Assembly: GCA_009773495.1 (NCBI GenBank)
Contig: WSXW01000003.1
Span: 70,551-134,550 of the forward strand
DNA from: Bacillota bacterium
GTDB lineage: Bacteria > Bacillota > UBA994
Direction: 5' to 3'
DNA: 64,000 bases
The notes beneath the pieces were generated by a model that was given only the letters and a program-made list of their open reading frames with translations, had not been told where the DNA came from and ran no database searches. The position numbers and the translations under genes are program-made. Shown piece by piece: positions 3,669 through 58,902 of the stretch (positions within the stretch are counted from its first letter, which is position 1; each line of letters starts with the position of its first letter).

Positions 3669-5000
3669 TTAGTCTTCCTCTTTTTCACCACGCCAATAAG
3701 CTAGGCGTTCGCGCAGGTTTTTCTCATACCCTAAACCACTTGGTTTGTAGAAGCGTTTACCTATTAAGCCTTTTGGGAGATACTCCTGCTTTACATGGTG
3801 CCCGGGGTGGTCGTGGGGGTAAATATACCCCTTACCGTGCCCAAAGTGCTTGGCTCCTTTATATGAGGCGTCACGCAGATGAATAGGAACTTCTACTTCA
3901 GCGTCACCTTCAAGGACTTCTAGAGCAGCATCGATACCAAAGTATGAGGCGTTGGACTTGGGTGCGCTGGCTACGTACACCACAGCTTGGGCTAAGGGAA
4001 TCCTGCCTTCAGGCATGCCTAGCAGTTCTACCGCTTGGTGGGCTGCTACCGCAACTTGCAAGGCGCGCGGGTCGGCATTCCCTACATCTTCGGCCGCACA
4101 GATGATAATGCGACGCGCTATAAAGCGCGGATCTTCACCGGCTTTAACCATACAAGCCAACCAAAACAAGGCAGCATCGGGGTCGCCACCGCGCATGGAC
4201 TTAATAAAGGCGGAGATAATGTCGTAATGCTTGTCACCGGTTTTGTCGTAGAGAATGGCGCGCTGCTGAGTAGACTCTTCGGCTACGGCTAGAGTAATAT
4301 GGATTTTGCCAGCTGCATCGGGCTCGGTACTCAGAGCAGCTATTTCTAAAGCGTTAAGCAGGCTTCTCGCGTCCCCTGCAGATTGGGTAATCATATGTGT
4401 CATAGCCGCGTCATCCACGCCGAGCAGCATCTGACCAAGACCCATTTCTGTATCCTGCAGCGCACGGCGTGCAATCTGCGCCAGTTCGTCTCTACCTAGA
4501 GTTTCTAGTTTGAATAAACGGGAGCGCGAAAGCAGCGGGGCATTAACACTAAAGAAGGGGTTTTCGGTGGTAGCACCAATCAGCACAATTAACCCCTTTT
4601 CTACTGCGGGCAAAAGTGCGTCTTGTTGACCTTTGTTGAAGCGATGGATCTCGTCGATGAAGACCACCGTGCGTTGTTCGTTCTGGGCCAAGCGGTCCTT
4701 AGCTTCCTGAACCACGCGCCGAATATCTGCCACGCCTGAGGACACAGCGTTGAGTTCGGTAAACTGGGCTTTAGTGCTATTCGCAATAATCTGGGCCAGA
4801 GTAGTCTTCCCCGTGCCGGGTGGACCATAAAGAATCAGTGAAGAGAGCCTGTCTGCCACGATGGCGCGGCGCAATAGCCGCCCTTCGCCAACGACGCCGC
4901 CTTGGCCAAAAAACTCCTCTAAACTACGGGGGCGCATACGCTCCGCTAGGGGTGCGCTGCGCCTCATCCGGTTTTCAGCAGTATACTCAAATATACTCAT
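3669..5000 (-). CDS. rarA: replication-associated recombination protein A (AAA ATPase)
   Basis: Walker A GPPGTGKTT and the conserved MgsA/RarA C-terminal domain. Length is 443 aa. Confidence 0.9.
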   Translation of the reverse strand: MSIFEYTAENRMRRSAPLAERMRPRSLEEFFGQGGVVGEGRLLRRAIVADRLSSLILYGPPGTGKTTLAQIIANSTKAQFTELNAVSSGVADIRRVVQEAKDRLAQNEQRTVVFIDEIHRFNKGQQDALLPAVEKGLIVLIGATTENPFFSVNAPLLSRSRLFKLETLGRDELAQIARRALQDTEMGLGQMLLGVDDAAMTHMITQSAGDARSLLNALEIAALSTEPDAAGKIHITLAVAEESTQQRAILYDKTGDKHYDIISAFIKSMRGGDPDAALFWLACMVKAGEDPRFIARRIIICAAEDVGNADPRALQVAVAAHQAVELLGMPEGRIPLAQAVVYVASAPKSNASYFGIDAALEVLEGDAEVEVPIHLRDASYKGAKHFGHGKGYIYPHDHPGHHVKQEYLPKGLIGKRFYKPSGLGYEKNLRERLAYWRGEKEED

Positions 5001-8545: not shown

Positions 8546-8582
8546 AAAGACCGATAAGCAAACTGCTTACCGGTCTTTTAAA
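8546..8582 (+). terminator. rho-independent terminator after the MFS gene
   Basis: AAGACCGATAAGCA-aac-TGCTTACCGGTCTT hairpin followed by TTTTAAATT. Confidence 0.65.
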
Positions 8583-8881
8583 TTACCCCCACAATGCCGT
8601 TAACCCTTTGTTTTGAACCTGCTCTCTGCAGGTGGGTAACCGCACTATGTACCTCGCGAATCCGGCTTAGCGGCTGCCACTCAGTACATTGTTATTGGTT
8701 TCCCATTTTGTTGGTGTTAGGAACAAAACTCTCGGGCCTCACGCACATCGCAGGGCAAACTGCGTAATAAATCTGTTTCTTGGTTCTATCTTAGCACGCT
8801 TCATTGTCCACTCGCAACATGAAAATACTGTATCACTTGGCAATGTAGTATGAATAGACTGTAGCAGAGGGAGGTGAAAGC

Positions 8882-38282: not shown

Positions 38283-39041
38283 CTACAGCACCTCTATCAA
38301 CCTAAACATCACATAAACCACTGCAGGAGGAACAGTCACCAGCAATAGACCACGCTTAGCTAAGTCAAAACCTCTAAAGGCATGGACCAGGTGATAGATA
38401 GTAAGTAATGCCCATGAGCCTAGTGAGATTAGATTTAAGAAGGGAATACCGTCGCGAACACCCACTACTAAGGCCATCGAGGCCAGTGGGACGACGAAGG
38501 AGAGAATTTCTATAATGTTGTTCTTGAATTCTAACCCTTCCTTAGCAACAGATAATCTGCGCAGCACAAGCGGTGCCGTCAACAACGCAATGATGGTTTC
38601 GGGGCCCATGTACGTGATGTTGTAAAGGAGTGAATATGCATATACGCTCTGCCCGGGTCCAGCGTATTCGCCAAAGAACACCACGCCGGCGAGGAAGTGC
38701 ATAAAGAAACGCGATAAGCCGCCAATCGTTATTCCTGCTAGCGGTTTTTCTTTAAAGAACCCTGCCAAGCCAACAGTAGCGAAGGCCAGTGGGTAGTCTA
38801 AAAGAGCCTGCACAGGATGAACAATATATGGGTCGACCATCATTTTAATCCCACTGAAGAGGAGCCCAGCCACTAACCCCGGAACCCCACCCCAACGTAG
38901 AGCCACAACGAAGAGTGGTAGCATCTGCAGTGACACAGACCCGCCTTGGGGCATTTCGCCCACGCGGAAGAGACTGAGCAGGTAGGCAAAGGCCACCATC
39001 ACCGCAATCTCTACCATCATCAGTGTTTTCTTGTTTCTCAC
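38283..39041 (-). CDS. ThiT/ECF-S-like thiamine (precursor) transporter
   Basis: 6-TM small transporter directly downstream of a TPP riboswitch. GTG start, with AGGAGGG 7 nt upstream. The first 26 codons of the listed ORF are read from the riboswitch terminator. Confidence 0.55.
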   Translation of the reverse strand: MRNKKTLMMVEIAVMVAFAYLLSLFRVGEMPQGGSVSLQMLPLFVVALRWGGVPGLVAGLLFSGIKMMVDPYIVHPVQALLDYPLAFATVGLAGFFKEKPLAGITIGGLSRFFMHFLAGVVFFGEYAGPGQSVYAYSLLYNITYMGPETIIALLTAPLVLRRLSVAKEGLEFKNNIIEILSFVVPLASMALVVGVRDGIPFLNLISLGSWALLTIYHLVHAFRGFDLAKRGLLLVTVPPAVVYVMFRLIEVL

Positions 39042-39084
39042 CAGAAGCCCTCCTTTATTCAGCAATGCCGCGGGAGTTAACCGA

Positions 39085-39216
39085 CAAATCAAAGTGCCCA
39101 TGCTAGGAAACATGGGCACAAATTATTGTGCTTAAGCTTCCCTACGCTGGTCTTAACCAGATCAGGTTCAAAGGGTCAGGGACATAGCTCCCTATCTCAG
39201 CCCAGCGGGCCCCCCT
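39085..39216 (-). promoter_or_regulatory. TPP (THI-box) riboswitch with a terminator expression platform
   Basis: Minus strand reads GGGGGGCCCGCUGGGCUGAGAUAGGGAGCUAUGUCCCUGACCCUUUGAACCUGAUCUGGUUAAGACCAGCGUAGGGAAGC. This matches the TPP aptamer consensus (CUGAGA ... ACCCUUUGAACCUGAUCUGGUUAAUACCAGCGUAGGGAA). It is followed by a GUGCCCAUG...CAUGGGCAC hairpin and a U-run. Confidence 0.85.
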
Positions 39217-39352
39217 AGCAACAATATGCTGTTACTATATAGTTTATCATGGAAAGTGAGAAGTGCAAGAGTGTAAATTGAGCAACGGTACCTCGTACAT
39301 CGTACTTAGCACCTCGTAGAATAACGAAATACGATGTACGAAGTACGACTTA

Positions 39353-39916: not shown

Positions 39917-40387
39917 CTACCTATTTAACATCTGGCTCAGTCTGTCTACAAGCGGTGCAGTCTCGTTAGCGTCTTTGACAATAATCAAGACGGTATCATC
40001 ACCAGCGATAGTGCCCATGACGCCGGGAAGCTGAAGGCTGTCTAGGGCCGCCGCCGCAGCGTTACCACCACCGGAGAAAGTCTTAAGTACTATAAGATTA
40101 GAGGTAAAATCTATATTGAGGACTGCATTACGTAGAATGCGAACTAGCCTATCAGCTAAGCTGTCCCCCCCGCTACTGGGGGCTTGGGTGTAAATCTGTC
40201 GACCAGACCTTCCTACTATCTTAATTAGCCCTAATTCCTTAATATCGCGGGATACGGTAGCTTGGGTTGTCTTAAAGCCGGCTAAATCCAGATACTCGGC
40301 AAGTTCTTCTTGAGTCTCTACTTCAAAACGTGCAATTATCTCTAGTATGCGTGCCTGTCTCTGTTCCTTCACCAGATCCCTCCTCAA
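39917..40387 (-). CDS. argR: arginine repressor
   Basis: N-terminal wHTH (QEELAEYLDLAGFKTTQATVSRDIKEL) and the C-terminal oligomerisation/arginine-binding domain (GTIAGDDTVLII). Confidence 0.8.
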   Translation of the reverse strand: MRRDLVKEQRQARILEIIARFEVETQEELAEYLDLAGFKTTQATVSRDIKELGLIKIVGRSGRQIYTQAPSSGGDSLADRLVRILRNAVLNIDFTSNLIVLKTFSGGGNAAAAALDSLQLPGVMGTIAGDDTVLIIVKDANETAPLVDRLSQMLNR

Positions 40388-40605
40388 AATATACCTTTAT
40401 CGAGTATTTTATCATAATACCAAAATTCGGTCACCACATTTGGCAAGAGTATCCGGTCCTTAAACAGTAGTGTCAGTATATCCATGTGATTCAATTTCTA
40501 ACGACCGAGGTCGCCCCTTGTGACGCCGCTACCACACGGAACAGGCTGGCCCACATTAGTGAGCCAGCCTGTTCCGTGTGGTAGCAACTATTGAGAAAAG
40601 GTTTG

Positions 40606-41763
40606 TTATGCGCTGACGTAACCTGCTTTAACTAATATTGAAAGTGCCTTGGCATGGTCCTCTTTTGCAGTGAGGATTACTGGGCCGGTGCAGCCCATAC
40701 CAGTGGTGGCAAAGATGCCCACCTTCCAGACTTCGCGCACGGCAGTCTCAAGGTCTAGAATATCAATGCCGGAAATTTCTTCAGTGACGGGCTTGGCTGG
40801 AGGTAAAATAATTTCTTTCTCTTCAGCCGGGATCTCCGCCTTGGCCTCTTTTTTAAAGAGACCAGGCAGGTCAGCCTTATTAGCGGCAACGAACTCCTGG
40901 GCTACTACATCAAGCAGCTTCCCCTTGGCTACATCGCCGGCGTACTTGATAGCACCAGCTACAACTGGAGCGCCAGAGGCACGCGAGAGGATGAGGATGA
41001 TCTTATCCAGACCTTCACCCACGCCAGGCCCATAACCATAACCTAAACTCTCATAGTCACCACCAGTGGTATAGGCAGAAAAGACCTTCATGAGGACGTT
41101 GCCGGTAAGAGTATCTGTCACCATGATATCCGGGGCGCCAACTAGGAGATCATTGCCACGCATTACAGAGCCGCCGTCTTGGCGTACTGACTCTGCGAAG
41201 TTAATCTCATAGCCGCTATCTGCCAACCTCTGCAAGCTACGCTCAACGGTACGAGCAGAGTCAACGTTAAGAATGCCCAAAGTGGGGTTAGCGACCCCCG
41301 AAGCCTTAGCTACAGCTATGCCGTAAATCGCATTATTAACCATGGCCTCTACCCTGTCAGTAGCTGATGTTCCAGTGGTAGTGGCGAGAAACATCTCCCT
41401 ACCTCTACCCGGCGTAATCACACGTCCTACAGTGGATACCCCAATAGGGAAGTTGTAGTGCATGGTCACAGCTGCGGCTATTTCACCGCTCTTCAATAGC
41501 TTCTCCATGACTTGATGTTGTGTCTTCTCACAGTCTGCTTCTTCGCGAGTGAGCTTACTGTTGACTGCAGGGCCTATAAGAACGACCTCAAGGTCAGGAT
41601 TAGCCTTGGCAGCTAGCTCGGCGCCGCGAACGATCTCATCAATGCCGTGCTCACTACCAAGCAAGGTTACACCAATCCGTGTACGGCTACCAAATACTCC
41701 TGTTTCTAGAGCATCAGCAATCTCACCAAATACTTTTGCGACGAGTTTTTTTGCGTCTGTCAT
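40606..41763 (-). CDS. grdD: glycine reductase complex protein C, alpha subunit
   Basis: 385 aa, conserved GrdD N-terminus, last gene of the grd cluster. GGAGGTG RBS upstream. Confidence 0.75.
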   Translation of the reverse strand: MTDAKKLVAKVFGEIADALETGVFGSRTRIGVTLLGSEHGIDEIVRGAELAAKANPDLEVVLIGPAVNSKLTREEADCEKTQHQVMEKLLKSGEIAAAVTMHYNFPIGVSTVGRVITPGRGREMFLATTTGTSATDRVEAMVNNAIYGIAVAKASGVANPTLGILNVDSARTVERSLQRLADSGYEINFAESVRQDGGSVMRGNDLLVGAPDIMVTDTLTGNVLMKVFSAYTTGGDYESLGYGYGPGVGEGLDKIILILSRASGAPVVAGAIKYAGDVAKGKLLDVVAQEFVAANKADLPGLFKKEAKAEIPAEEKEIILPPAKPVTEEISGIDILDLETAVREVWKVGIFATTGMGCTGPVILTAKEDHAKALSILVKAGYVSA

Positions 41764-41778
41764 ATTATCACCTCCCGC

Positions 41779-43320
41779 CTATTTGGCGTCGGAAAGAGAT
41801 TCTGCCAGAGCACGCATAGCTTCGGCAATTAGTTTGCGTACCTCGCCCTCATCAATACCGCCTGTAGCCTGTTTAGTGGTACCGGGGTTAGCTTCCATCA
41901 CAAAGGAAACGCCATCGAAGAGATTTGTCATGCGAGCGAGGAATAAGCTTCCTTTACCAATGATCATGGCGCGCTTAATTTCGCCCTTCATCATCGCCTC
42001 ACGAGCCAGACCTATTACCGGCACACCCGATGGTACGTGGCCTTGGGTAGGTGCAAAACCAGGCATGCCATGCTTCTCTACAAAGCTGTTGAGATCGGCG
42101 CGCTCAATATCGCCACGCTTAACACCAAGGGCAGCAATCATTTTGTAGTTAGCAAGCGGAACATCGCCGGCCCCTGCAGGTACGGTTACTTCGGGGTTCT
42201 GCATTTCTACAGCAAATAAGTCAACCTCAGTTAACTTGATGTTGTTGCGATCCAAGGGGTCGGTTACTATAGCCTGCATAACGGACTGCGGACTAGAGCC
42301 GGAACCGATAGTATGTCGGCCCACAACGTCGGTACGGATAATTGGATTAATGCCGTCATTCTCAGATACCCAGATGGCGAAACCACCCATAATGTCCTCT
42401 AGAATAGGCAGGTTCTTCTTAGCGTGATCTTTGCCGTTCATACCAAGTTTAGCCGTAGCACCACCAGCTACTACTACCACGTTTTTATATACGCCAGCTT
42501 TAACTAGAGCTGCCGCAGTGACCATGGCGTGAGCCGGAGCAGCGCAGAATCCTCTCGTGTCACTGCCAGTAGCATTAACACAACCCACTACTTCGCCGAT
42601 AGCCTTGGCAAAGTTACCGCCGCCGCGCTGATTCATATCACCGCAGGCTTCCTCAGAACATTCGATGATGTAATCGACAGCCCTAGGGTCTAGGCCAGCT
42701 TTCAAGAAAAGATTACGGACAGAGACTACAGCGGACGCCATAGCCGAGATGTTTTCGAATATGATGTGTGCACTTAAGGATTCATCACTATCATGAGCCT
42801 GGCGCACACAACCAACCAAGCGATTACCTAAACGCAGAGGTTCGGCAACATGTGCTTCTACCTGCCTAGCGATGGTCGCCTCGTCGGAGGTCTTGTCGAG
42901 CTTACTGAGGTTCGCGCCCGCGAAGGCAGGGTGCTTAGCTAATAGTTCTTTAACCTCAATCGCAAACTTTTCTTCGATGAGCACGAGATCAAAAGAATCT
43001 ACTAACTTCATTACGCCGTAGAATTCGTCCTCGGGCATAATTTCGCCCCTTGTTCCGAAACGGTTCGCACCTTTACGACTGTTCTCGTACCAGGGCTTAG
43101 CAACCTGCTCGAGAGATTTTGGCAGGATGTTGCCGATATAGGCTTGATTAGGTGCATAATCTACGCAATCTGCAAAACTTCTGAGATGTTCAGGAAGGGC
43201 CTTGAGATAGTCACTATTCGGATTCTTGGCACGTTCTACGGTCTGGGTTGTGCCGTGGTCCAACAGGATGTTTGGTGTATGAAACAGGGCATAGGCAGCC
43301 CCTTTAATAACAGGAAACAT
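41779..43320 (-). CDS. grdC: glycine reductase complex protein C, beta subunit
   Basis: About 513 aa starting at MFPVIKGAAY, with GGAGGTG 6 nt upstream. Thiolase-like fold typical of GrdC. Confidence 0.75.
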   Translation of the reverse strand: MFPVIKGAAYALFHTPNILLDHGTTQTVERAKNPNSDYLKALPEHLRSFADCVDYAPNQAYIGNILPKSLEQVAKPWYENSRKGANRFGTRGEIMPEDEFYGVMKLVDSFDLVLIEEKFAIEVKELLAKHPAFAGANLSKLDKTSDEATIARQVEAHVAEPLRLGNRLVGCVRQAHDSDESLSAHIIFENISAMASAVVSVRNLFLKAGLDPRAVDYIIECSEEACGDMNQRGGGNFAKAIGEVVGCVNATGSDTRGFCAAPAHAMVTAAALVKAGVYKNVVVVAGGATAKLGMNGKDHAKKNLPILEDIMGGFAIWVSENDGINPIIRTDVVGRHTIGSGSSPQSVMQAIVTDPLDRNNIKLTEVDLFAVEMQNPEVTVPAGAGDVPLANYKMIAALGVKRGDIERADLNSFVEKHGMPGFAPTQGHVPSGVPVIGLAREAMMKGEIKRAMIIGKGSLFLARMTNLFDGVSFVMEANPGTTKQATGGIDEGEVRKLIAEAMRALAESLSDAK

Positions 43321-44751: not shown

Positions 44752-45216
44752 CTACTTACCGTATTTGCTATGAGAATCACGCATGTTGCCTACTTCAGCG
44801 TTAATGGCCGGAACATCGAGTACCATTTCCATCATGCTGATTTGTTCCTCGTAGATTTCTGCATCAACTTGCTCTTTAAGTTCGAAAATGTGATAGACTG
44901 CGAGCCCTAACTGGACTCCTGCCAAAGGACCGGCGAAGGTTGGATCACCAGCAGTTACGGTCTCAGCAGCGAGGCCTGCAGCCTCAGCTTCTGCGCCACC
45001 AAGAACAACAACAATGTTCTCAGCACCGTACTTTTCTGTGAGTTCCTTAACCCTACGTTGGTTTTCCAGATCCATGGCACCTGCGGCTGTTCAGACAAAA
45101 CACTCGGTAACTGAGAACACGACTTCAGCGCCAGCGGACTTCACGCATTCTTCAATGGCTGGTCCTGGCACGCCGTCGCGGTCACCAAGAATGACCACTT
45201 TTTTGCCTTTAAGCAT
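44752..45216 (-). CDS. grdA: glycine reductase selenoprotein A (in-frame UGA=Sec at 45091-45093)
   Basis: Reading upstream of the listed 107-aa ORF in frame gives [53 protein letters not shown]... This is the GrdA CxxU active site. GGAGG lies 8 nt before the ATG at 45216. Confidence 0.85.
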
Positions 45217-45335: not shown

Positions 45336-46628
45336 CTATACGCCCTTTGCCGTCAGCTTACTGAAGCCTAGCTCGTTAGTAGCACCGGTAATGACTTGGA
45401 TTTCGGCGGTAATGGTACCGTCCTTGGCCAAGCTACCGTTCCAGCCACCAGCAATTACGTCAGCAACTTCAGGGTGACCAATCACTTTTTTCATGGTGGG
45501 AAGAACAATTACTTCGTTAGCGTTACCAGCTGTAATTACTGCGTTAGCAAGTGGGTCAGCGTCGGCGAGAGACTGAGAAGCGCCGTCTTGACCTGCATAT
45601 TCATCGGTGACGAGAACGGTCTTTATGCCCTTCTTTTCAAGCTTTGTACAGTTCATCATGAGATCTGCGTCGGGGTTGCCGAAACCTTCCTCTGAAATGA
45701 TGGCCGCATCTACGCCAAGCCATTCAACTAACTTTGCTGTGAAGCTGGAGGAACGTTCCTTGTCGGCTAGGGTAACGTTTTCGTTGGTCACAACTACGCC
45801 GATAAAGTTATACTCCTTGCCATGACGCTCTAGTAAGTCATGAATAATGGGGCTGTTGAGGTGATGATAAGTGGTGTTCTTGTCACAGGCAGATACGCAG
45901 TTACCGGAGATAATCGCTCCATCCATAACCTCAGTGGGATAGATGAAGGTAGGCAGGGTGCGCTTAGCATCAATGCCGTAGACATACGTGTCGTGAAGCA
46001 GGCCTTGGCTCTGCAACATGTACACATAAGCAACCTTCGGGAGATTAGGGTATTGTTGCAAAGCTTGTGGTAGTGGTGGGCAGTCGTAAGTCACCACCTC
46101 GTCAGGAGTAACGCTGCGACCGGCTTCAGCTAAATAAGTGGCAGCCTTAAGACCCATGATCCGAAGAGCAGCTTCGTGCTCATGCTGGAGCAAACCTTCG
46201 ATAGGTTCTGCGATTACTACAACGTTATTGGTCTTAGAGAACGGAGTATATTCTGCACCAGGGCCAGTCATGTCGATAATGCCTTCTTGGAAACCGACAA
46301 TCTTACCTGTGGTAACGACCGCTGCGCCCTTTAGTACATGGGTAACGCCGTTACCAACTGTCTCTACCTTGCTAACAAAGCCTGGGAAAATGCCTCCTGA
46401 ACCTTGAACCTTTACACGAGGCTCAATTACATCCTTAACAGGAATAATGCGGGTTTCGTCGCCGGGCTTAGCTAAGTCAATTTCAAGAGAAGCAAAGCGC
46501 TCGTCTTCTAGTGTTGTTATCATTTCCTGCTTGTTAACAAATAGAACGCCATTCTTAACCTCTGTAATAGCACCGAACTGTACGTCAGAAACCTTGATAT
46601 AACCTAACTCTAAACGCATGATGTTCAC
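45336..46628 (-). CDS. grdE: glycine reductase proprotein GrdE (protein B alpha/beta precursor)
   Basis: 430 aa with the conserved GrdE sequence, including the internal Cys-containing processing region (NCVSACDK). GGAGGTG RBS upstream. Confidence 0.8.
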   Translation of the reverse strand: MNIMRLELGYIKVSDVQFGAITEVKNGVLFVNKQEMITTLEDERFASLEIDLAKPGDETRIIPVKDVIEPRVKVQGSGGIFPGFVSKVETVGNGVTHVLKGAAVVTTGKIVGFQEGIIDMTGPGAEYTPFSKTNNVVVIAEPIEGLLQHEHEAALRIMGLKAATYLAEAGRSVTPDEVVTYDCPPLPQALQQYPNLPKVAYVYMLQSQGLLHDTYVYGIDAKRTLPTFIYPTEVMDGAIISGNCVSACDKNTTYHHLNSPIIHDLLERHGKEYNFIGVVVTNENVTLADKERSSSFTAKLVEWLGVDAAIISEEGFGNPDADLMMNCTKLEKKGIKTVLVTDEYAGQDGASQSLADADPLANAVITAGNANEVIVLPTMKKVIGHPEVADVIAGGWNGSLAKDGTITAEIQVITGATNELGFSKLTAKGV

Positions 46629-47103: not shown

Positions 47104-48324
47104 CTAACGCAATTCGTCAATCTTAGCCTTTATGGCAACTTCGGTAATTTCGTCTTCGACCAAGCGTGAAGCAACTTCGCCGCGATGGAAGAAGAGCACT
47201 GTTGGATTCTGGACAACACCATAACGGGTTGCAACCCGCTGGTTACGATAGGTATCCATCTTCCAGAGTTTTACTGACTGACCGCCGGATGCGAGTGCGC
47301 CCTCAATCATAGGCATCATCTCGATACTCTTACCGCCCATAGGAGTCCAGAAAACGACTGCAACTGGACGTGACTCTGCGAGTACTGAGTCCCGGAAGCC
47401 CTCTTCTTCGATGAGGAATTTCTCAGCGGCTACGGCAGCGATAGCGCCGTCTGCAGCAGCAGTGACAACCTGGCGAAGGTACTTAACTCTAGCGTCCCCG
47501 ACGGCGAAAACGCCATCAACGTTTGTCTCCATGCGGTCATCGGTAATAATGTAGCCACGTGAGTCAAGATTAACTACACCTTTTAGGAAATCTGTTTGTG
47601 GAACGGTACCAACATAGATAAATACACCGTTTGTCTCCATCTCGGTGAGTTCGTTGGTCTTGATGTTCTTAAGAACAACAGCCTCAACTATGCCGTCCCC
47701 CTTAATCTCATTTATTGTAGAGTTCCATACGAACTTGACCTTAGGGTTTTTGAAGGCGCGTTCTTGTAGCATAGGCGCAGCGTCGAGTATCCCCTCATCG
47801 TGTATAGCTATTATCGTTACCGAATTGGCAAATTTAGTAAGGTGGTTGCCCTCTTCAATGGCTGCGTCGCCGTTGCCAAGGACTACAATGTCTAAATCAG
47901 TAAAGAAGTCAGCATCACAGGTGGCACAATAGGATACACCCTTGCCGCGCAGAGCGTGCTCGCCTTTTACACCTAATGTACGCGGGACTGCTCCTGGTGC
48001 AAAAATGAGAGTATGCGCTTTGTACTCGGTACCGTCTTTGCAACGCACAATCTTCTTCTCAGCGTCAATAGACACAACTTCATTGCGCACAAATTCAGCA
48101 CCAAAATGCTTGGCATGTTCGGTGAAAGCGTTCATCAGGCCAGGGCCTGTAGTGCCAGCAGCAAAACCAGGGTAGTTTTCCATGTCTTCCGTAGTAGCTG
48201 CCTGACCACCGGTCTTCCCCTTTTCGATAAGCAAGGTCTTAAGTTTTGATCGGGCGCCATAAATAGCAGCTGAAAGACCGCCAGGGCCGCCGCCCACTAT
48301 GATAATATCCCAAATATTAGACAC
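47104..48324 (-). CDS. trxB: thioredoxin reductase fused to a C-terminal thioredoxin-like domain lacking the CxxC motif
   Basis: FAD motif GGGPGG, redox CATCD and an NAD(P)H site. An extra ~95 aa has a Trx fold but FWTPMGG in place of WCGPC. GTG start with AAGGAGA upstream. The first ~60 codons of the listed ORF are non-protein-like. Confidence 0.7.
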   Translation of the reverse strand: MSNIWDIIIVGGGPGGLSAAIYGARSKLKTLLIEKGKTGGQAATTEDMENYPGFAAGTTGPGLMNAFTEHAKHFGAEFVRNEVVSIDAEKKIVRCKDGTEYKAHTLIFAPGAVPRTLGVKGEHALRGKGVSYCATCDADFFTDLDIVVLGNGDAAIEEGNHLTKFANSVTIIAIHDEGILDAAPMLQERAFKNPKVKFVWNSTINEIKGDGIVEAVVLKNIKTNELTEMETNGVFIYVGTVPQTDFLKGVVNLDSRGYIITDDRMETNVDGVFAVGDARVKYLRQVVTAAADGAIAAVAAEKFLIEEEGFRDSVLAESRPVAVVFWTPMGGKSIEMMPMIEGALASGGQSVKLWKMDTYRNQRVATRYGVVQNPTVLFFHRGEVASRLVEDEITEVAIKAKIDELR

Positions 48325-48545: not shown

Positions 48546-48932
48546 TTACAACTTCCCTGCCATGCGTAACGACTCAAGTCCAGAATCTAGAAGTGACTTA
48601 TCAATAAGTTGCAGATCTTTGATTGCCTGCGTCGGAAAATCGCGATAGGGACGTTCTTTAACCATCCTCCGGGCAACTTCAAGACATCCTTCAGCAATCT
48701 GTACTGATTGGTAGTCTACACCTAAATCGCCCTTGGTAACCACAACGGACCTAAACGGATTTTCGTTAGGCTTGACACTTCCGGCAAATGGATGTGTTAG
48801 CAAATGATGGCCTAAATGAACAAGATCTCGTACCCTCTCCAGTACCGGCACGACTCCGTAATCAGTTACATGTATATCTGTTGAGGTGAGTTCTACAGTT
48901 GGGTTATTGCTGACTATTGTTATGTATCTCAT
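48546..48932 (-). CDS. grdX: glycine reductase complex component GrdX (putative)
   Basis: 128-aa protein in the first position of the grdX-trxB-trxA-grdE-grdA-grdB-grdC-grdD order conserved in glycine reductase operons. GAAGGAA RBS upstream. Confidence 0.5.
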   Translation of the reverse strand: MRYITIVSNNPTVELTSTDIHVTDYGVVPVLERVRDLVHLGHHLLTHPFAGSVKPNENPFRSVVVTKGDLGVDYQSVQIAEGCLEVARRMVKERPYRDFPTQAIKDLQLIDKSLLDSGLESLRMAGKL

Positions 48933-49191
48933 GGCGCGGTTCCTTCAATACCTTTTCAATAGCTCTAGTCAACTCAATGATGGTATCGGCTGCGATCTGG
49001 ACGTCGAGTGAGCTCACCCTAGTGAATATGGCCCCTCGCTCTGTCACGACGTAGCGCGGCGGTAGGTTGTTTAGCGCAATCGCCATGATGTCATACCTGC
49101 ACCTTTCGCACGTGCAAATCTTTACGATATTAGGTAGCATCTCGTCCAATTTTTCGAATACAATGTCTTGAGTTATGTTCTTGAGCAGCAT
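48904..49191 (-). CDS. ComFB-like small Cys-rich protein
   Basis: CTCERCRYDIMAIALNNLPPRYV pattern (CxCxxC plus ALNxLPPxY), reminiscent of the ComFB family. It is the first gene after the glycine riboswitch. Start is at MLLKNIT, with AAGGTGG upstream. Confidence 0.45.
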   Translation of the reverse strand: MLLKNITQDIVFEKLDEMLPNIVKICTCERCRYDIMAIALNNLPPRYVVTERGAIFTRVSSLDVQIAADTIIELTRAIEKVLKEPRHEIHNNSQQ

Positions 49192-49209
49192 ACAATAACC
49201 ACCTTTCAT

Positions 49210-49415
49210 AAAAAAATGAACGGCAAAGCATGCCGCCCAATTCTCTGTCCTGAAATACCTGAGAGATTCCGCGGCCCTCCGCTTGCTCCTTCGGTGCCAT
49301 AACTGGCTTTCCAGAGTGCTGTCAGCAGTGCGGTCCTTTTGCCTGAGAGTTTATGCTGCCTTTGGCGAAAGGTCAGATTGCTCCTTCGGCGCCCCAGTAG
49401 GGGTCTCTCCCGCTA
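49210..49415 (-). promoter_or_regulatory. tandem glycine riboswitch (two aptamers) with a terminator, leader of the grd operon
   Basis: Aptamer 1 on the minus strand reads GGGAGAGACCCCUACUGGGGCGCCGAAGGAGCAAUCUGACC...CUCUCAGGCAAAAGGACCG. Aptamer 2 reads CUCUGGAAAGCC...GGCACCGAAGGAGCAAGCGGAGGGCC...CUCUCAGGUAUUUCAG. Both have the GGAGAG / ACCGAAGGNGCAA / CUCAGG cores. They are followed by a GGGCGGCA-ugcuu-UGCCGUUC hairpin, a U7 run and then the ATG. Confidence 0.85.
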
Positions 49416-49589
49416 GCTTCTTCCAGCTAGTATGTTGTTCTTACCTAGAGAATATCATGCTTAAGACAAGCCTGCAAGGCAAATTTAGACTATGGGGCAG
49501 GAATAGACCTCGCTGCGGTAGAATAGTGTACTAGACTGAGCACATCGACAAAAATCTGGATATTTATTGTGAAAGGGGTAGTGATCACG

Positions 49590-50432
49590 GTGACTCGTAA
49601 GGTGACTATTATTACTGATAGCGCTGCAGACCTACCACGTGAGATTGCTTTACAACGTAATATACGCATAGTACCCTTGTATGTGACACTAGGGGACGAT
49701 ACCTTTAAAGACGGGGTGGAGTTAACCCCCGATGAACTCTATCTCAAAATGAAGTTCGACAAGGCTGTGCCTCGTACCAGCCAGCCCTCCCCAGAGGATT
49801 TCCGCCTGGCCTTTGAGGAATCCTCCCCTCCACATGTCCTTTGTCTGACTATATCCGCAAACCTTAGCGGTACACTCCAGAGTGCGGAACTGTCAAAAGA
49901 ATTATTATCCGAATCAGTACAAGTTACTACATACAATACCAAGAACGCCTCCCTTGGCGAGGGGCTAAAGGTACTAATAGCAGATGACCTTGCCCAAATA
50001 GGGCTCTCGGTCTGCGAGATTATCAACAGGCTAGACGCGCTTAAGCTGCGCACTATTTTTACCGTGGATCATCTACAATACCTTGAGCGAGGCGGGCGCA
50101 TTTCTAAGGCCCAAGCTACGATGGCTGCAGTGCTCGATATTAAACCTATCCTCACGATGTCGTCGAATGGCCTCATCGAGAATGTGACCAAAGTTAGGAG
50201 TCGGCAAAAATCTATCCGCTATCTCTTAGAGCAAATGGAACAGGATCTTACTTCACAGTACGCTGGCTACATTGCCCTAAGCTACGCTTTCTGCCCCGAG
50301 GAAGCAGAAAAAGTCTTAGCTGTAATTCAGACTAAATACCCCCAAGCAAAAATAGTGACTGGACCCATCGGCGCAGCCATCGGCTCGCATACCGGACCAG
50401 GCTGCCTCGCACTGTTCTACGAACTGAAGTAA
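49590..50432 (+). CDS. DegV-family fatty-acid-binding protein
   Basis: VTIITDSAADLP N-terminus and the DegV fold. Length is about 280 aa. Confidence 0.8.
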   Translation: MTRKVTIITDSAADLPREIALQRNIRIVPLYVTLGDDTFKDGVELTPDELYLKMKFDKAVPRTSQPSPEDFRLAFEESSPPHVLCLTISANLSGTLQSAELSKELLSESVQVTTYNTKNASLGEGLKVLIADDLAQIGLSVCEIINRLDALKLRTIFTVDHLQYLERGGRISKAQATMAAVLDIKPILTMSSNGLIENVTKVRSRQKSIRYLLEQMEQDLTSQYAGYIALSYAFCPEEAEKVLAVIQTKYPQAKIVTGPIGAAIGSHTGPGCLALFYELK

Positions 50433-50587: not shown

Positions 50588-51661
50588 TCACAGCTCAGTT
50601 TCATGTTGAACTGCAAAGCACTTGCGTTCCACCACTTTTATGGGCCCTGCACTGCCGGATTTGCATTCACCCACACAGGCGGCGTCTACTCCAGCCGCAC
50701 GCAGTTGCTTTAGGGCCTCAGCAACGCGCTCTGCTGGCACTGCAAACAACAAGCCTCCACTCGTCTGCGGATCATACAGAATATCTCTTATTCTTTCCTC
50801 CACACTATCTGCAAACTCCACGCCCACGCCAAAGTGTTCTGCATTTCGATAAGCCCCGACAGGAATGAGTCCCATAGATGCATACTCAGTGGCGCCCGGC
50901 AGCAGAGGTATCTCGGAAACCCACAGCTCTAGCTCAACTTTACTGGCTCGGGCTAGCTCCATACAATGTCCAAGCAGACCAAATCCCGTAATATCAGTGC
51001 CACCACGCACACCAAAGCCCTTAAGTATTTCGGCTGATGTACGGTTAAGCATAGCCATTTGTTGTAATGCAAACGCCACATGAGAATCATCAGCTAAACC
51101 TGCCTTACTGGCTGTAAAAATAATGCCGCTACCTAAAGGCTTTGTCAGAATGAGCTTGTCTGTTGCTCTCGCTCCGGCGTTACTTATAATTTCTTTTGGG
51201 TGCACTGTTCCTGTAATAGATAGACCATATTTAACGTCCTGATTCTCAACTGTATGACCGCCTAAGACAACTACTCCGGCTTCCAGGCACTTGTCTGCCC
51301 CGCCGCGCATTACCTCGCCCATTACCTCAGGTTCAATGCAGGTTGCATAACAAACTATGTTGAGAGCAGTGAGCGGTGTCCCGCCCATAGCGTATACATC
51401 GCTTAAAGAATTAGCGGCAGCTATCTGCCCGAACATATAGGGATCGTCGGTCATGGGTGAGAAGAAGTCTAGCGTCTGCACAAGGGCAACGTCATCGGAA
51501 ATTTGGAATACGCCAGCATCATCACTTGTATCCAAACCAACCAAAACTCGAGCGTCTATAACTGTCGGCATAGCTGCCAGCAGCTTACTAAGGACTCCCG
51601 GTCCTAATTTACTGGCTCAGCCACCTCCTGATGAGAGTTCAGTTAACCTAACGTACCCCAT
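50588..51661 (-). CDS. selD: selenide, water dikinase (selenophosphate synthetase), Sec-containing form (UGA at 51617-51619)
   Basis: Extending the listed ORF upstream in frame gives MGYVRLTELSSGGGU-ASKLGPGVLSKLLAAMPTVIDAR... Sec replaces the active-site Cys. An AGGAC-cggga-GUCCU hairpin starts 11 nt after the UGA. Confidence 0.8.
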
Positions 51662-52590
51662 CGGTGCTTCCTCCCTTCTACTAGCTGACGTGCTTCCGGG
51701 GATCGAAGGAAGTTCGCCAGTTCTGCCACCGCCCGCCCACCATAGCGATGAGGCATAGTAATTAAGAAGAACGGGCGAGCGAACTTAACGCCTGCCAAGC
51801 TTACCGCGGTTGCTGTACCAAGTAAAAGAGACTTTTCAGCGGCGTACATTGACACCAAAGCCACGCCCAAGTTGGCCTCGACCGCGTTAACAGCCGCTAG
51901 GGAAGTTCCCACTTCCAAAACCGGTGTTAGTCGACTTGGCGAAAGACCAGCTGCAGAGAGTTCTCGTTCATATACGGAGCGACTTCCTGAGCCAGAGGCC
52001 CTACCCACAAACGGTTCCCCGTACAATTCCTCGAGAGCGACTTCTTTAAGACGGGCGAAACGGTGACTGGGATTAACTAGAAAAATTATCTCATCACTAA
52101 AAACAGCTTCCGCTCGCACCGTAGGATCTTTTGGCTGAGCGCCTACAATACCAAGATCGAGTTCCCGCCGATTGAGTTTATCTATAATTACGTTGGTGCT
52201 ATCTACTATCAGTCGCGGTTTTACACGCGGATATCTTTGTGTAAAAGCTCTAATGAGCTGCGGGCACAACTGTTCTCCTGGCACAGTACTCGCCCCTAAG
52301 AAAACAGGGCCTGCCACTTCTCCCATCATTTCATCTATCTGCCTGCGAGTGGTATCTACATCGTCTAACAGACGAGCTACACTAAGCGCGGCAAGCTCCC
52401 CTGCGCGCGTTAACTCCATTCCCTTGCTATTGCGTTCGATCAGCTTAGTGCCGAAGTAATCCTCCAAGGCCTGGATATGCATACTCACTGCAGGCTGAGT
52501 GAGGCCAAGCTGCTTGGCAGCTGCAGAAAAAGACCCTGCCTCCATAATAACGGAAAATGTTCGAAAATAGTTCAAATTCACTGCATCCAC
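51643..52590 (-). CDS. LysR-family transcriptional regulator
   Basis: N-terminal HTH FSAAAKQLGLTQPAVSMHIQALE and the LysR substrate-binding domain. Confidence 0.8.
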   Translation of the reverse strand: MDAVNLNYFRTFSVIMEAGSFSAAAKQLGLTQPAVSMHIQALEDYFGTKLIERNSKGMELTRAGELAALSVARLLDDVDTTRRQIDEMMGEVAGPVFLGASTVPGEQLCPQLIRAFTQRYPRVKPRLIVDSTNVIIDKLNRRELDLGIVGAQPKDPTVRAEAVFSDEIIFLVNPSHRFARLKEVALEELYGEPFVGRASGSGSRSVYERELSAAGLSPSRLTPVLEVGTSLAAVNAVEANLGVALVSMYAAEKSLLLGTATAVSLAGVKFARPFFLITMPHRYGGRAVAELANFLRSPEARQLVEGRKHRWGTLG

Positions 52591-54563: not shown

Positions 54564-54659
54564 TGGCGGGAGTATGTGGGAATCGAACCCACCGCGGACT
54601 GAGTCTAGCCCGCTGCCGGATTTGAAGTCCGGAAGGCACACCAGAACCTATCTACTCCC
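54564..54659 (-). tRNA. selC: tRNA-Sec (anticodon UCA)
   Basis: Minus strand reads GGGAGUAGAUAGGUUCUGGUGUGCCUUCCGGACUUCAAAUCCGGCAGCGGGCUAGACUCAGUCCGCGGUGGGUUCGAUUCCCACAUACUCCCGCCA. It has an anticodon loop CUUCAAA, a long variable arm, a GGGUUCGAUUCCC T-arm and an encoded CCA. It lies immediately downstream of selB. Confidence 0.85.
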
Positions 54660-54669
54660 AAGACCTAGT

Positions 54670-56601
54670 TTAGCATGGTAGATTAGCACTGTCAAAGGAA
54701 CTGTTAAGCCTGCGGCTTTCTCCCACTCGCAAAGTAAGCTTTTTCTGATCAAAATATTCTAGTAAAGGCAGAGCAAATTTGCGGCTGCTATCTAGCATGG
54801 TGCGAAATGTAGCTAAGGTCAATTCTTGTTCCTGCGCGAAATGCTCCTGTACCATATCCTTGGCTTGGCATACGGCTGCTCGTGCAAAATACATACCTTC
54901 TGCTATCTTCACTAGCTCTTGCGCTTCGACGAGTGCATCTAAGAGCTCTCGCATGTCTTCAGCAGACAGCTTGATACTATCGACTATTTCTTCCATAGTC
55001 GGGGGGCTATACATTTGCTTAGAGTACAAGCTCAAGGCCAGGTCACGCGCCCGCTGCCATTTTCCGGTGAACTGAACTGTAAAATCGTTGAGAGCAACCG
55101 CACGAGCAGTCAACTTGAGTCTGGCCTCGCCTTGTAACGCCAATAACAGTGCGCTAAAGACTCTGGCGTTAACGGACGGCAATATCCGGCTACGCAACTC
55201 CTCGCGCGATATGCCAGCCCTTAAAGGATAACGCTTATGATGGTCAGCTAAAATCGTAGCGAACCTTTCGCTGAGGTGCGCGATCGTATCGCGATGAATA
55301 ACGTAATCTACATCGTCTGCGCGCATCTCAACAACGAGTTCTTCACTAATTAATAGTTCTAAGGCGTCCTCGGCATCAGCTTTACCAACAGACTTTAGGA
55401 CTTCTTGACGGCTTAATAATCGATCATTATACCTCGCGATGCGTTGGCTTAAGATATCTGCTGTACTGCCGCTTTCTAAAACGCTTAGCTCATGCAGTCC
55501 TTTTTCCTTAAATCTCTTACGTTTCTCTGGAAGTGGGTCGAGAACAGTCCCGCCACCTATGGTAACCATGGGGGAATATGAGCGCATCACGAAACGGTCG
55601 CCGGCCCTTAGTGCAGTTGGCTCCTCCAGACGAAACTGAACAAAAGCGCTCTCACTAGGCAACAACTCTTGGCTGTCTAGCAGTACTACCCTGCACAGAA
55701 TCTCAGCTGTACCTGCATACAGTCGGACTCTCTGACGGTTGCTCAATATTTTCTCCACGTCAGGGAGCAGCGTCACCCGCGCATCCAACATCATGGTCGG
55801 TGTAAGGGAGCCGGGCGCAGTAAGAATATCTCCACGGTTCACCTGTTCAACTGTCACTCCTGCCAGATTCAAGGCGGTCCTTTGTCCCGCTTCAGCCCGA
55901 TCAACTTGCTTGCCGTGTACCCCCACTCCCCTTACTCTCACAAAGAGCTGAGAAGGCTGAATTTCTACTGTATCACCGGGTCGAACGGTGCCGGAAAGTA
56001 GCGTACCGGTAACCACTGTTCCAAAGCCTTGGACAGTGAATACGCGATCAATTGGCAGACGAAAAGGCAAGTTAGAATCGCGCGGATTTACGTCTTCACA
56101 AAAACGGTCTATCGTATCCGTTAGCTCCGGCAGTCCTCTTCCTGTGATTGCAGATACGGGTATAATGGGGGCTTCAGCCAGACATGTACCCTGAACCTTG
56201 TCACGAATTTCGAGCATAACAAGTTCTAGCCACTCCTCCTCAACTAGGTCGGCCTTAGTTAATACGACAATTCCTTGTTTCACCTGCAATAACGAGAGGA
56301 TGTGCAGGTGCTCTGCTGTCTGTGGCATTACACCTTCATCAGCGGCGACAATTAATAACACTAGATCCATGCCGCCAACACCAGCCAACATATTCTTAAT
56401 GAACTTTTCATGCCCAGGTACATCTACTATGCCCGCCCTGCGCCCGCTAGGTAGGTCAAAATAGGCAAAACCCAAATCTATGGTGATGCCCCGCAATTTT
56501 TCTTCCTTGAGTCGGTCGCAATCAATATTTGTTAAAGCTTTGACTAGAGTCGTCTTACCATGGTCAATATGACCAGCTGTACCAATTATGACGTGCTTCA
56601 T
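54670..56601 (-). CDS. selB: selenocysteine-specific elongation factor
   Basis: GTPase G1 motif [10 protein letters not shown] and EF-Tu-like domains, plus a long C-terminal winged-helix SECIS-binding extension. Length is 643 aa. Confidence 0.85.
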
Positions 56602-57977
56602 GATTTTTCCCCAGCTGCCTTACGTAGGGATACTAACAAGTCCTCGGTATCGTGAGGGAGAATGGTACGGGGATCAAGCAACACCCGATCGTGAAGTATT
56701 CTAGCTATAACGGGGATCTCAGCCTGCCGGAGACGCCCTTCGAAGCTCACACAACTCAGGGGAGAGGTAATCGCTACAGCAAAGCCTGGTATATCTCTGC
56801 CCGGCAGGGAACCTCCCCCCACCTGGCCGACGCATTCAATAACTTGCGCAGTAAGTCCTGCTATGGCGTTAACCTTATCTCTAAGTTCCTCTGCTGCATG
56901 AAACAAATCATCCTGACTCAAATTTAGCATGCGCACGAGGGGTATCTCCTGCCTATGCTCGGCGTGACGATAAAGTCTGAGGGTACTTTCTAAGGCGGCC
57001 AGAGTCATCTTATCGAGGCGCAAGGCCCGTGCTAAGGGGTGAGTGCGTATGCGAGCAATGCATTCGGCCTTACCTACAATCAGGCCAGCCTGTGGCCCTC
57101 CCATGAGCTTGTCGCCACTAAAGGTGACTATATCCATGCCTGTCGCCACGATTTCCTGCACCGTTGGCTCCCCGTAACCGGCAATCAACACGCCACTGCC
57201 TAAATCCTCAATTGCCAGCAACCCATGCTGATGACTAAGTTCTACAAGTGCTTCGGTACTTACATCTTCAGTGAAACCAATCACGCGAAAATTGCTCGTG
57301 TGCACCTTGAGTAAAGCCGCTGTATTGTGATTAATAACCCGTTCGTAATCACTAAGGTGAGTTTTGTTTGTTGCGCCTACCTCGCGTAGTAAGGCCCCGC
57401 CTTGTTCCATAACATCAGGAATTCTAAAGGATCCCCCTACTTCCACAAGTTGTCCGCGCGAAACAACGACCTCTTTACCCTGGGCCAAAGAGCTTAACAC
57501 CAGTAGTACAGCCGCTGCGTTGTTATTGACAGCTATTGCATCTTCGCATCCAGTTATCTCCCGCAGCAACTCCCGCACGTGGTCATGCCTGCTACCACGT
57601 TCACCCCTAGTCAGATCATATTCCAAGTTCGAATAGCCTCGAGCAGCCTGAACTACCGCGGCAATTGCTTGTTCCGCCAAAGGTGCGCGACCCAAGTTCG
57701 TGTGTAAAGGTATGCCTGTAGCGTTAATGACTCTCCGCAGGCTAGGAGAGTTACGCCGCTTAGTCTCTTTTGCAACCATCTCACCTATACTACTTATGGA
57801 TATCAGAATATCTAGTGATTGCGAGCCAATAGCTATCGACTCCCGTAGCTCTTGTAAAACGTTGCGCAGCACCACAACGACCTGTTCCCTCCCATGCTCA
57901 GCAACTAGGTCTTGGATAGCTCTGTTAGCGAGCAAATCATCCATCTTGGGTATCAGCCTGTACAGGTCACTGGTCAT
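56598..57977 (-). CDS. selA: L-seryl-tRNA(Sec) selenium transferase
   Basis: 459-aa PLP enzyme with the SelA pattern. Its stop overlaps the selB start by 4 nt. Confidence 0.8.
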
Positions 57978-58902
57978 GGCCGGTCACCCCGCTCAGATAC
58001 TTCTCAACGATAGATGCGACCAGTGCGCCATCTCCGACAGCAGTGGCCACTTGACGCAACACCTTTTGCCTGACGTCCCCTGCTACCAATACACCTTCAA
58101 CCGATGTACTTAAGTGCTGGTCAGCAACAACATAACCGCTATGGTCGAGCTCAATGATTGTGCGCAAAAACTCGGTATTAGGCTGGAGTCCGATATAGAT
58201 AAATATCCCATCGACCGGGATAGTTTCAATCTCGCCAGATTTTACGTTAGCCAGGGTGAGAGATGTTACTTTGGTGTCACCATAAATGGCTTCTACAATG
58301 GTATCGAATTTCACTGTTATCTGTGGGTTACGCATAGCTCGTTTAGTAAGAATAGGCGTAGCACGGAACGAATCGCGGCGATGCACGAGAATTACCTCTT
58401 TGGCGAAGCGAGTGAGAAAAACTGCTTCTTCTACCGCGGAATCAGAACCGCCTACTACGACCACCCTTTTGTCTCTGTATAAAGCCCCGTCACAAGTAGC
58501 GCAATATGACACCCCTGTGCCCCTAAACCTAAGCTCGCCCGGCACGCCTAGTTCCCGCGGGGAGGCACCCGTAGCCACGATAACACACTTAGCCTGATAT
58601 GTGCCGCCGTGCCCCTCCAGGAGCTTAACTGGCCCTACCAGTTCAAGTCTGTGGATTTCGTCGTAGATCACCTCAGCCCCAAAACGCTGCGCTTGGTCTA
58701 GCATTGATAACGCTAGATCTACACCGCCTATACCTTGAGCAAAGCCAGGGTAGTTTTCGATACTAGCTGTAGTGGCCATTTGCCCACCCGGTGCGAGCTT
58801 CTCAATAACGACTGTTTTGAGGCTAGCTCGGGCACAGTAGAGTGCCGCCGTTAACCCTGCTGGACCTGCTCCTAAGATGCAGACATCGTATATCTTGCTC
58901 AC
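57967..58902 (-). CDS. trxB: thioredoxin reductase
   Basis: GAGPAG FAD motif and CATCDG redox centre, 311 aa, GTG start. Its stop overlaps the selA start. Confidence 0.85.

Follow-up and report, generated by a model that had tools for sequence, protein, structure and literature searches.

A predicted ON-type tandem glycine riboswitch ahead of a glycine reductase operon in a serpentinite-aquifer Bacillota

In Clostridioides difficile, a glycine riboswitch lies upstream of the glycine reductase (grd) operon (PMC11477304, PMC10880999), and glycine raises the output of a PgrdX reporter that carries this riboswitch (10.1101/2023.06.30.547236; PMC11477304). Tandem glycine riboswitches of the ON type may contain a further helix, P5, which joins the P3b loop of aptamer 1 to the tract just after P1 of aptamer 2. 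P5 occurs in 87–99% of the ON-type tandem elements and in none of the OFF-type ones; it usually overlaps the alternative helix, according to the authors without experimental validation, and was reported for the ON switches ahead of aminomethyltransferase genes, the group of Bacillus subtilis gcvT (PMC7161355). Glycine reductases of serpentinite-hosted Bacillota were proposed to use geogenic glycine as an electron acceptor (PMC9751293); that work does not mention a riboswitch, and our literature search found no earlier report of one in the papers on serpentinite Grd. Here we describe the leader of a grd operon in a 64,000-nucleotide (nt) stretch of contig WSXW01000003.1 (positions 70,551–134,550, assembly GCA_009773495.1), which comes from a metagenome-assembled genome (MAG) of a serpentinite-aquifer Bacillota. 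The whole stretch is referred to as the window, and all positions are counted from its first letter.

We interpret this leader, with high confidence, as a canonical tandem glycine riboswitch with ON logic, composed of two aptamers of the Rfam glycine family RF00504, a P0/kink-turn, a P5 pseudoknot, and a single terminator.

Aptamers, terminator, and start of the operon

The original prediction had placed a tandem glycine riboswitch on the minus strand between 49210 and 49415. The scan of this region with RF00504 (gathering score 32 bits) bore it out, since each of the two aptamers separately exceeded the cut-off. The elements of the platform were as follows.

49419–49426, minus strand: P0 leader strand CUG (49426–49424), paired to CAG of the linker (49321–49319), and after it the GAA bulge and a G-A step of the kink-turn; the region matches the P0 portion of the tandem model
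49321–49422, minus strand: glycine aptamer 1, with P1 GCGG/CCGC, J1/2 GAGAG, GCCGAAGGAGCAA, the P3b hairpin, and CUCUCAGG; RF00504 57.5 bits
49235–49322, minus strand: glycine aptamer 2, with P1 formed by CUCUG (49316–49312) and CAGAG (49247–49243), J1/2 GAAAG, ACCGAAGGAGCAA, and CUCUCAGG; RF00504 40.9 bits
49210–49239, minus strand: predicted intrinsic terminator found by pattern scan, with a 9-base-pair (bp) stem (49239–49231 with 49225–49217), the loop UGCUU, and U7 (49216–49210)

The aptamers abut at 49321/49322 and are followed by one terminator. The P0/kink-turn, with the CUG/CAG pairing, the GAA bulge, and the G-A steps, was recognized in the alignment to RF03166, the glycine-GGAnGA family. 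It extends the element to approximately 49426, so that the 3′ end of the predicted interval was retained and its 5′ end was moved about 10 nt further upstream.

When the whole window was scanned at Rfam gathering scores, aptamer 1 alone was reported; aptamer 2 passed when its region was scanned alone. Our own covariance model R1, trained on 45 grd-linked aptamers, gave exactly two sites in the 64 kb of the window, with 72.7 bits for aptamer 1 and 59.5 bits for aptamer 2, and revealed no further glycine aptamers there. A singlet or a degenerate second aptamer was ruled out by the local RF00504 scan together with this search. The pocket motifs CCGAAGGAGCAA and CUCUCAGG were unbroken in both aptamers, and the bulged U of CUCUCAGG is a glycine contact (PMC7161355). 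Judged from these sequence features, the element is a genuine two-aptamer glycine riboswitch, and we infer that it binds glycine.

The fold was assessed on an alignment of 13 relatives, with slid partners and 500 shuffles as controls. Overall, 90.9% of the cells were paired, compared to 35–49% with slid partners, in support of the three-way junction fold (P1, P2, P3/P3a/P3b). Compensatory changes were found in 19 pairs, a number reached by none of the 500 shuffles. P0 was 100% paired, with compensatory changes in two of its three pairs; P2 and P3b covaried in both aptamers. Across 45 aptamers, P1 and P3 had 12–21 compensatory sequences.

The core sequences were as originally described for aptamer 1 (GGAGAG) but not for aptamer 2, which has CUCUG-GAAAG; its J1/2 (49307–49311, minus strand) is GAAAG versus the consensus GAGAG. 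This deviation is not particular to the clade of the window: among 40 grd-linked tandems, J1/2 of aptamer 2 was GAAAG in 32, GAGAG in five, and AAAAG in three. Second aptamers of grd-linked elements had low RF00504 scores (approximately 36–41 bits) and were usually missed by gathering scans of whole loci. The GAAAG junction may be the reason why Rfam default filters tend to miss aptamer 2.

The same junction raises the question of whether the RNA is no glycine sensor but belongs to a variant class that recognizes another ligand, RF03166 (gathering score 110 bits) for instance. At relaxed thresholds RF03166 was the top match over the whole element, and one relative, L012, scored above its cut-off (113 vs. 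110 bits). The score of the window was 74.7 bits, far under the cut-off, and its membership in this family was rejected. Each aptamer passes RF00504 alone, CCGAAGGAGCAA and CUCUCAGG with its bulged U are retained in both, and the enzyme encoded downstream is glycine-specific by the motifs of GrdB (see below). We therefore consider an altered ligand specificity extremely improbable. The relative L012, an uncultured Clostridiaceae MAG, carries its grdX-linked tandem riboswitch at 3745–3922 (plus strand); at least some RF03166 members thus also precede grd operons.

The asymmetry of GC pairs between the pockets (PMC7161355) was considered as an ON signature and dropped, as both pockets carry the full CUCUCAGG. 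A G-C vs. A-U difference that we noted is situated at the base of P3 and cannot be mapped to the asymmetry criterion of that study.

The hairpin of the terminator, UGGGCGGCA/UGCCGUUCA (49239–49217), contains two G.U and five G-C pairs and has a core energy of −12.8 kcal/mol. Its stem is preserved with compensatory changes within the clade of the window. Together with U7, it has the form of a Rho-independent terminator and is predicted to act as one. An 8-bp terminator with a U7 run abutting the first start codon had been described initially; the hairpin and the U run are indeed present, and the stem has 9 bp when the two G.U pairs are included. ATG at 49209 does adjoin the U run but is probably not the true start. 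ATG at 49191 is the probable one: it is preceded by a ribosome-binding site AAAGGUGG (49206–49199), it was picked by the gene callers on identical contigs, and the site is kept in relatives, in some of them with UUG.

Only in the window, the 5′ strand and loop of the terminator, UUGGGCGGCAUGC (49228–49240), were complementary over 13 bp to the start region of the first gene comFB, GUAUGCUGCUCAA (49181–49193). This pairing could mask the start codon in the read-through transcript. It was seen in a 75-nt fold, was absent from the relatives L084, L086, and L001, and is located downstream of the termination decision; we judged it probably fortuitous.

Upstream of the leader, degV is divergently oriented (49569–50432, plus strand), and the grd promoter must therefore be located in the 137-nt gap. 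One candidate was assigned there.

49449–49477, minus strand: putative sigma-A promoter, with −35 TTGCAG (49477–49472), a 17-nt spacer, and an extended −10 TGaTATTCT (49457–49449); predicted transcription start near 49442

The candidate promoter block is kept in L084 and L086 though their flanks diverge.

The P5 pseudoknot and the predicted direction of the switch

The loop of P3b in aptamer 1 is complementary to the tract that follows P1 of aptamer 2, where the 5′ strand of the terminator lies.

49364–49368, minus strand: P5 5′ arm UCGCC, in the loop of aptamer 1 P3b; complementary to 49237–49233
49233–49237, minus strand: P5 3′ arm GGCGG, within the 5′ strand of the terminator; for this arm, pairing in P5 and in the terminator are mutually exclusive

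We propose the following mechanism. Transcription would begin from the conserved promoter approximately 15 nt upstream of P0. In the absence of glycine, the GC-rich hairpin of 9 bp would fold ahead of U7 and could be lengthened if AGAGAA pairs to the U tract, and transcription would end 18 nt ahead of the first start codon (ATG 49191). With glycine, the two aptamers would dock and P1 of aptamer 2 would take up CAGAG, while the P3b loop UCGCC would pair with GGCGG to form P5 and sequester the centre of the terminator 5′ strand. With P5 formed, the hairpin would be prevented and RNA polymerase would read into the operon. With such an ON switch, glycine would induce the pathway by which it is itself reduced and consumed, and the two UGA-recoded genes of the operon with it.

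P5 was supported by comparison of the relatives. In the alignment described above, its five pairs were 92% paired, with a compensatory change from C-G to U-A in two. Among 38 loci compared for co-change, the 4-mer of the P3b loop and the tract 3–8 nt after aptamer 2 P1 varied together (CGCC:GGCG, UGCC:GGCA, UGUC:GACA, GUCC:GGAC, UGCU:AGCA, and UACC:GGUA). In 29 of these loci, the complementarity was exact over 4 nt or more. Of the five loci whose loop is UGUC, four had GACA downstream, and the 33 others all lacked it. In a shuffle test across the loci, the observed value was 11.3 vs. 10.2 ± 0.37. The statistical support for P5 consists of this cross-locus shuffle test and the counts of aligned pairs.

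The design of the terminator differs among the relatives. Most of the grd-linked relatives have the classical ON design, with the P1 3′ strand of aptamer 2 (ACAGAG) serving also as the first part of the terminator 5′ strand. In the clade of the window, the window included, the GC-rich core of the terminator begins 3–4 nt past aptamer 2 P1, without overlap, and the weak AGAGAA:U6 extension is the only part that overlaps P1. A simple exclusion of the terminator by P1 was rejected for the window sequence after energy evaluation, in which the two structures coexisted; the formation of P1 alone hence would not suffice to stop termination here. Other potential antiterminators were tried and rejected: pairing of the linker GCACUGCUG with CGGCAUGC, of the P2 3′ strand GGCA, and of the aptamer 2 P3b 3′ strand CCGC gave 4–6 bp each and was not conserved in L001–L007, L084, and L086.

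Several results weigh against the proposed ON switch. The terminator core can form alongside aptamer 2 in its native fold, with a combined energy of −33.0 kcal/mol, and the switch is hence dependent on a 5-bp pseudoknot. In the window sequence taken alone, the energy of the P5 duplex (−8.1 kcal/mol) was equalled by 317 of 1000 shuffles. When P3b loops were permuted against downstream regions among the loci, 656 of 2000 permutations reached the observed complementarity; this test was non-significant because most loci share GCC:GGC. The candidate promoter is weak compared to the consensus and falls below the threshold of the consensus scan, and a terminator-like hairpin after grdB may curb the control of grdCD.

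The lack of overlap between the terminator core and P1 could also be read differently, namely that glycine binding acts by OFF logic, or that the terminator is essentially constitutive and grd is expressed via other regulators or by leaky read-through. The minimum-free-energy folds of the leader, which always contained the terminator, are in agreement with this. However, P5 overlaps five of the nine nucleotides of the terminator 5′ strand, covaries, and has been reported in ON-type tandem switches only (PMC7161355). P1 and the terminator are mutually exclusive in relatives with the same gene context. Inspection of the relatives' sequences revealed no conserved antiterminator that would become available without ligand. 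Repression by glycine of a pathway that consumes glycine would be physiologically senseless, and grd of C. difficile is induced by glycine. For these reasons OFF logic or a constitutive terminator appears very unlikely.

ON logic, which had been proposed for the element from the beginning, is the best-supported reading: the competition of P5 with the terminator, the P1/terminator overlap of the relatives, and the glycine induction in C. difficile all point to it. As P1 lies off the terminator core, P5 has to do the work in this leader, which makes the window a convenient test case for P5.

Operon genes and reach of control

The nine genes listed in the original prediction, from comFB-like to grdD, were identified correctly according to NCBIfam and Pfam models. 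The two UGA-decoding genes were also recovered from the translations, as grdA and grdB.

48904–49191, minus strand: comFB, ComFB family, first cistron; Pfam PF10719 82.5 bits; overlaps grdX by 29 nt
48546–48932, minus strand: grdX; NCBIfam NF038093 104 bits (cut-off 40)
47104–48324, minus strand: trxB; TIGR01292 355.7 bits
46638–46955, minus strand: trxA of the clostridial grd-operon type; NF047697 148.7 bits (cut-off 140)
45336–46628, minus strand: grdE, component B proprotein; highest NCBIfam score with the GrdG model, 635 bits (cut-off 780)
44752–45216, minus strand: grdA, selenoprotein A; in-frame UGA at 45093–45091 (CFVUTAAG); NF040748 266 bits
43405–44718, minus strand: grdB, selenoprotein B; in-frame UGA at 43668–43666 (UGTCTRCG); TIGR01917 696 bits (cut-off 602)
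43665–43628, minus strand: selenocysteine insertion sequence (SECIS) of grdB, directly after the UGA; SECIS_4, RF01990, 62.1 bits
43370–43396, minus strand: 12-bp hairpin (10 G-C pairs) with a UUUUU run behind it (in UUUUUAGAUU), located after the stop codon of grdB and before the ribosome-binding site of grdC
41779–43320, minus strand: grdC; NF040746 789 bits; ATG at 43320 preceded by GGAGGUG
40606–41763, minus strand: grdD; NF040747 577 bits

GrdC, GrdD, GrdX, and the thioredoxin system were all above the NCBIfam cut-offs. The GrdE score below the cut-off of the GrdG model would be expected of a GrdE paralogue. GrdB passed TIGR01917, the glycine-specific model, but not the models for its sarcosine and betaine paralogues (693 bits vs. 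a cut-off of 800 for GrdF and 536 vs. 775 for GrdH), and its translation bears the glycine-specific motifs AHGGxD[P]...RVLPxD...TxGNxTxV, as defined in PMC9751293. Component B is thus predicted to be specific for glycine and not to be a sarcosine or betaine paralogue. For grdA, the Rfam scan gave no match to a SECIS model.

The C-terminal approximately 100 amino acids (aa) of TrxB form a thioredoxin fold (PF00085, 39 bits, residues 307–405) without CxxC (..FWTPMGGKS..). The same 406-aa architecture was also called in relatives, and a separate canonical trxA follows. The TrxB/thioredoxin-like fusion is a clade-specific feature.

The original prediction placed the entire grd operon under the riboswitch. 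The element does stand before the operon, and all genes from comFB to grdD are on one strand, with short gaps except for those of 221, 148, and 119 nt before trxB, trxA, and grdA. Given the hairpin between grdB and grdC and these gaps, the control may not extend to the entire operon; grdCD could get fewer transcripts. This terminator-like hairpin is specific to the clade of the window and, judged by its sequence, may be an internal attenuator or a stabiliser of the transcript or of its 3′ end, setting the ratio of GrdAB(E) to GrdCD.

It is possible, though we think it the less probable case, that the riboswitch governs the promoter-proximal part from comFB to grdB and that grdC and grdD are partly uncoupled by the hairpin or by internal promoters. 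The 12-bp stem with its UUUUUAGAUU tract favours such uncoupling, and the sizeable untranslated gaps before trxB, trxA, and grdA favour internal promoters. However, a consensus scan detected nothing promoter-like on the minus strand within these 119–221 nt gaps, and the sole minus-strand site within the operon lies inside grdD (41360–41332). The approximately 50 nt between the hairpin and grdC are without promoter features, and the U tract after the hairpin is short and interrupted. Uncoupling of grdCD would in any case refine the riboswitch control described above and is not an exclusive alternative to it.

At 22 nt past the grdD stop lies a perfect inverted repeat of 22 bp (40529–40584, minus strand; loop of 12 nt). 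It has no U tract and probably marks the end of the operon. The next gene after it is argR (39917–40387).

Other genes for selenoprotein synthesis were found next to the operon. A selenocysteine-decoding cluster (54568–58902, minus strand) lies upstream of grd and includes a second trxB (57967–58902), selA (56598–57977), selB (54670–56601), and tRNA-Sec (54568–54659). The gene selD (50588–51620, minus strand; SelD TIGR00476, 347 bits) has an in-frame UGA in the N-terminal glycine-rich loop (SSGGGU-ASKLG) and was shortened to 327 aa in the list of open reading frames. It is the third selenoprotein gene beside the grd operon and lies outside the transcription unit of the riboswitch. A LysR-family regulator gene (51643–52590) is situated between the selenocysteine cluster and selD. 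Elsewhere in the window, two ordinary RNA elements were detected: a thiamine pyrophosphate (TPP) riboswitch (39122–39226, minus strand; RF00059, 78.8 bits) ahead of a YuaJ-type thiamine transporter gene (38283–39119), and a 6S RNA gene (8582–8759, minus strand; RF00013, 73.1 bits).

Distribution among relatives and comparison with known systems

In a survey of GrdX, one genome per species was scanned and the best 80 grdX loci were kept. GrdX of the window was identical to that of the Bacillota MAG GCA_018333435.1, whose contigs are also present in runs SRR8438314 and SRR6213607, and the closest relatives (L001–L006) were MAGs from serpentinising springs and aquifers. Glycine aptamers were found upstream of grdX by our own model in 50 of the 80 loci, all on the coding strand and within approximately 500 nt; 40 of these 50 loci had two aptamer matches. 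When 17 loci were re-checked with the curated Rfam model, each was again found to contain a glycine aptamer. The link between grd and the riboswitch is thus the rule and not a curiosity, and the arrangement is already published. The unusual placement implied by the original prediction was overstated: a position before grd is described for C. difficile and is the majority arrangement for grdX-led operons among the different species of the survey.

The gene comFB was found between the riboswitch and grdX only in L001–L006, L084, and L086, i.e., in the clade of the window; tblastn gave no match to it in the other 74 grdX loci. ComFB proteins are receptors of cyclic di-GMP/cyclic di-AMP (PMC12448109). 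As the first cistron, comFB is a clade-specific addition.

The element adds little to riboswitch biology, being one more ON-type tandem switch in a context known from C. difficile. Its meaning is rather for the proposed respiration of geogenic glycine, since a glycine-sensing leader is independent evidence, at the level of the sequence, for glycine as both physiological inducer and substrate. Metatranscriptomes could be used to determine how many transcripts are terminated relative to those that read through. Two further ideas are offered as speculation and are, in our estimate, improbable. One is that ComFB is coupled translationally to GrdX and links second-messenger signalling to glycine respiration; the other, separate from it, is that grd-linked tandems are a tuned subclass with a GAAAG J1/2, a low-scoring aptamer 2, and a terminator blocked mainly by P5 rather than by P1. 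If true, the read-through ratio could be an in situ reporter of intracellular glycine in the proposed respirers of geogenic glycine.

Compared to the OFF-type switches of Vibrio cholerae (VCI-II) and Fusobacterium nucleatum, which precede transporter genes, the element has the same aptamer architecture and kink-turn. OFF-type switches are without P5, mostly without P3b in aptamer 1, and have P4 (PMC7161355), whereas the window has P3b and P5 and no P4. With RF03166 the element shares the tandem layout with P0 and aligns to the model end to end, at a score below the cut-off as given above; unlike the RF03166 consensus, its aptamer 2 has the canonical pocket sequences.

B. subtilis gcvT resembles the window element in its pair of aptamers, its P0/kink-turn, and its one intrinsic terminator; it is an ON switch, as is predicted for the window. 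In gcvT, P1 of aptamer 2 is the direct antiterminator, whereas in the window the terminator core starts 3–4 nt past P1, and only P5 and the weak AGAGAA:U6 extension would compete with it. The pathway behind the window element is glycine reduction by Grd, not glycine cleavage, and its aptamer 2 carries GAAAG.

The grd operon of C. difficile (grdX-trxB3-trxA3-grdEABCD) is preceded by the same class of riboswitch in the same position; the two were compared by description. The window alone has a ComFB-family gene before grdX and the extra thioredoxin-fold domain on TrxB, and its host is an uncultured Bacillota of a serpentinite aquifer, not a gut clostridium.

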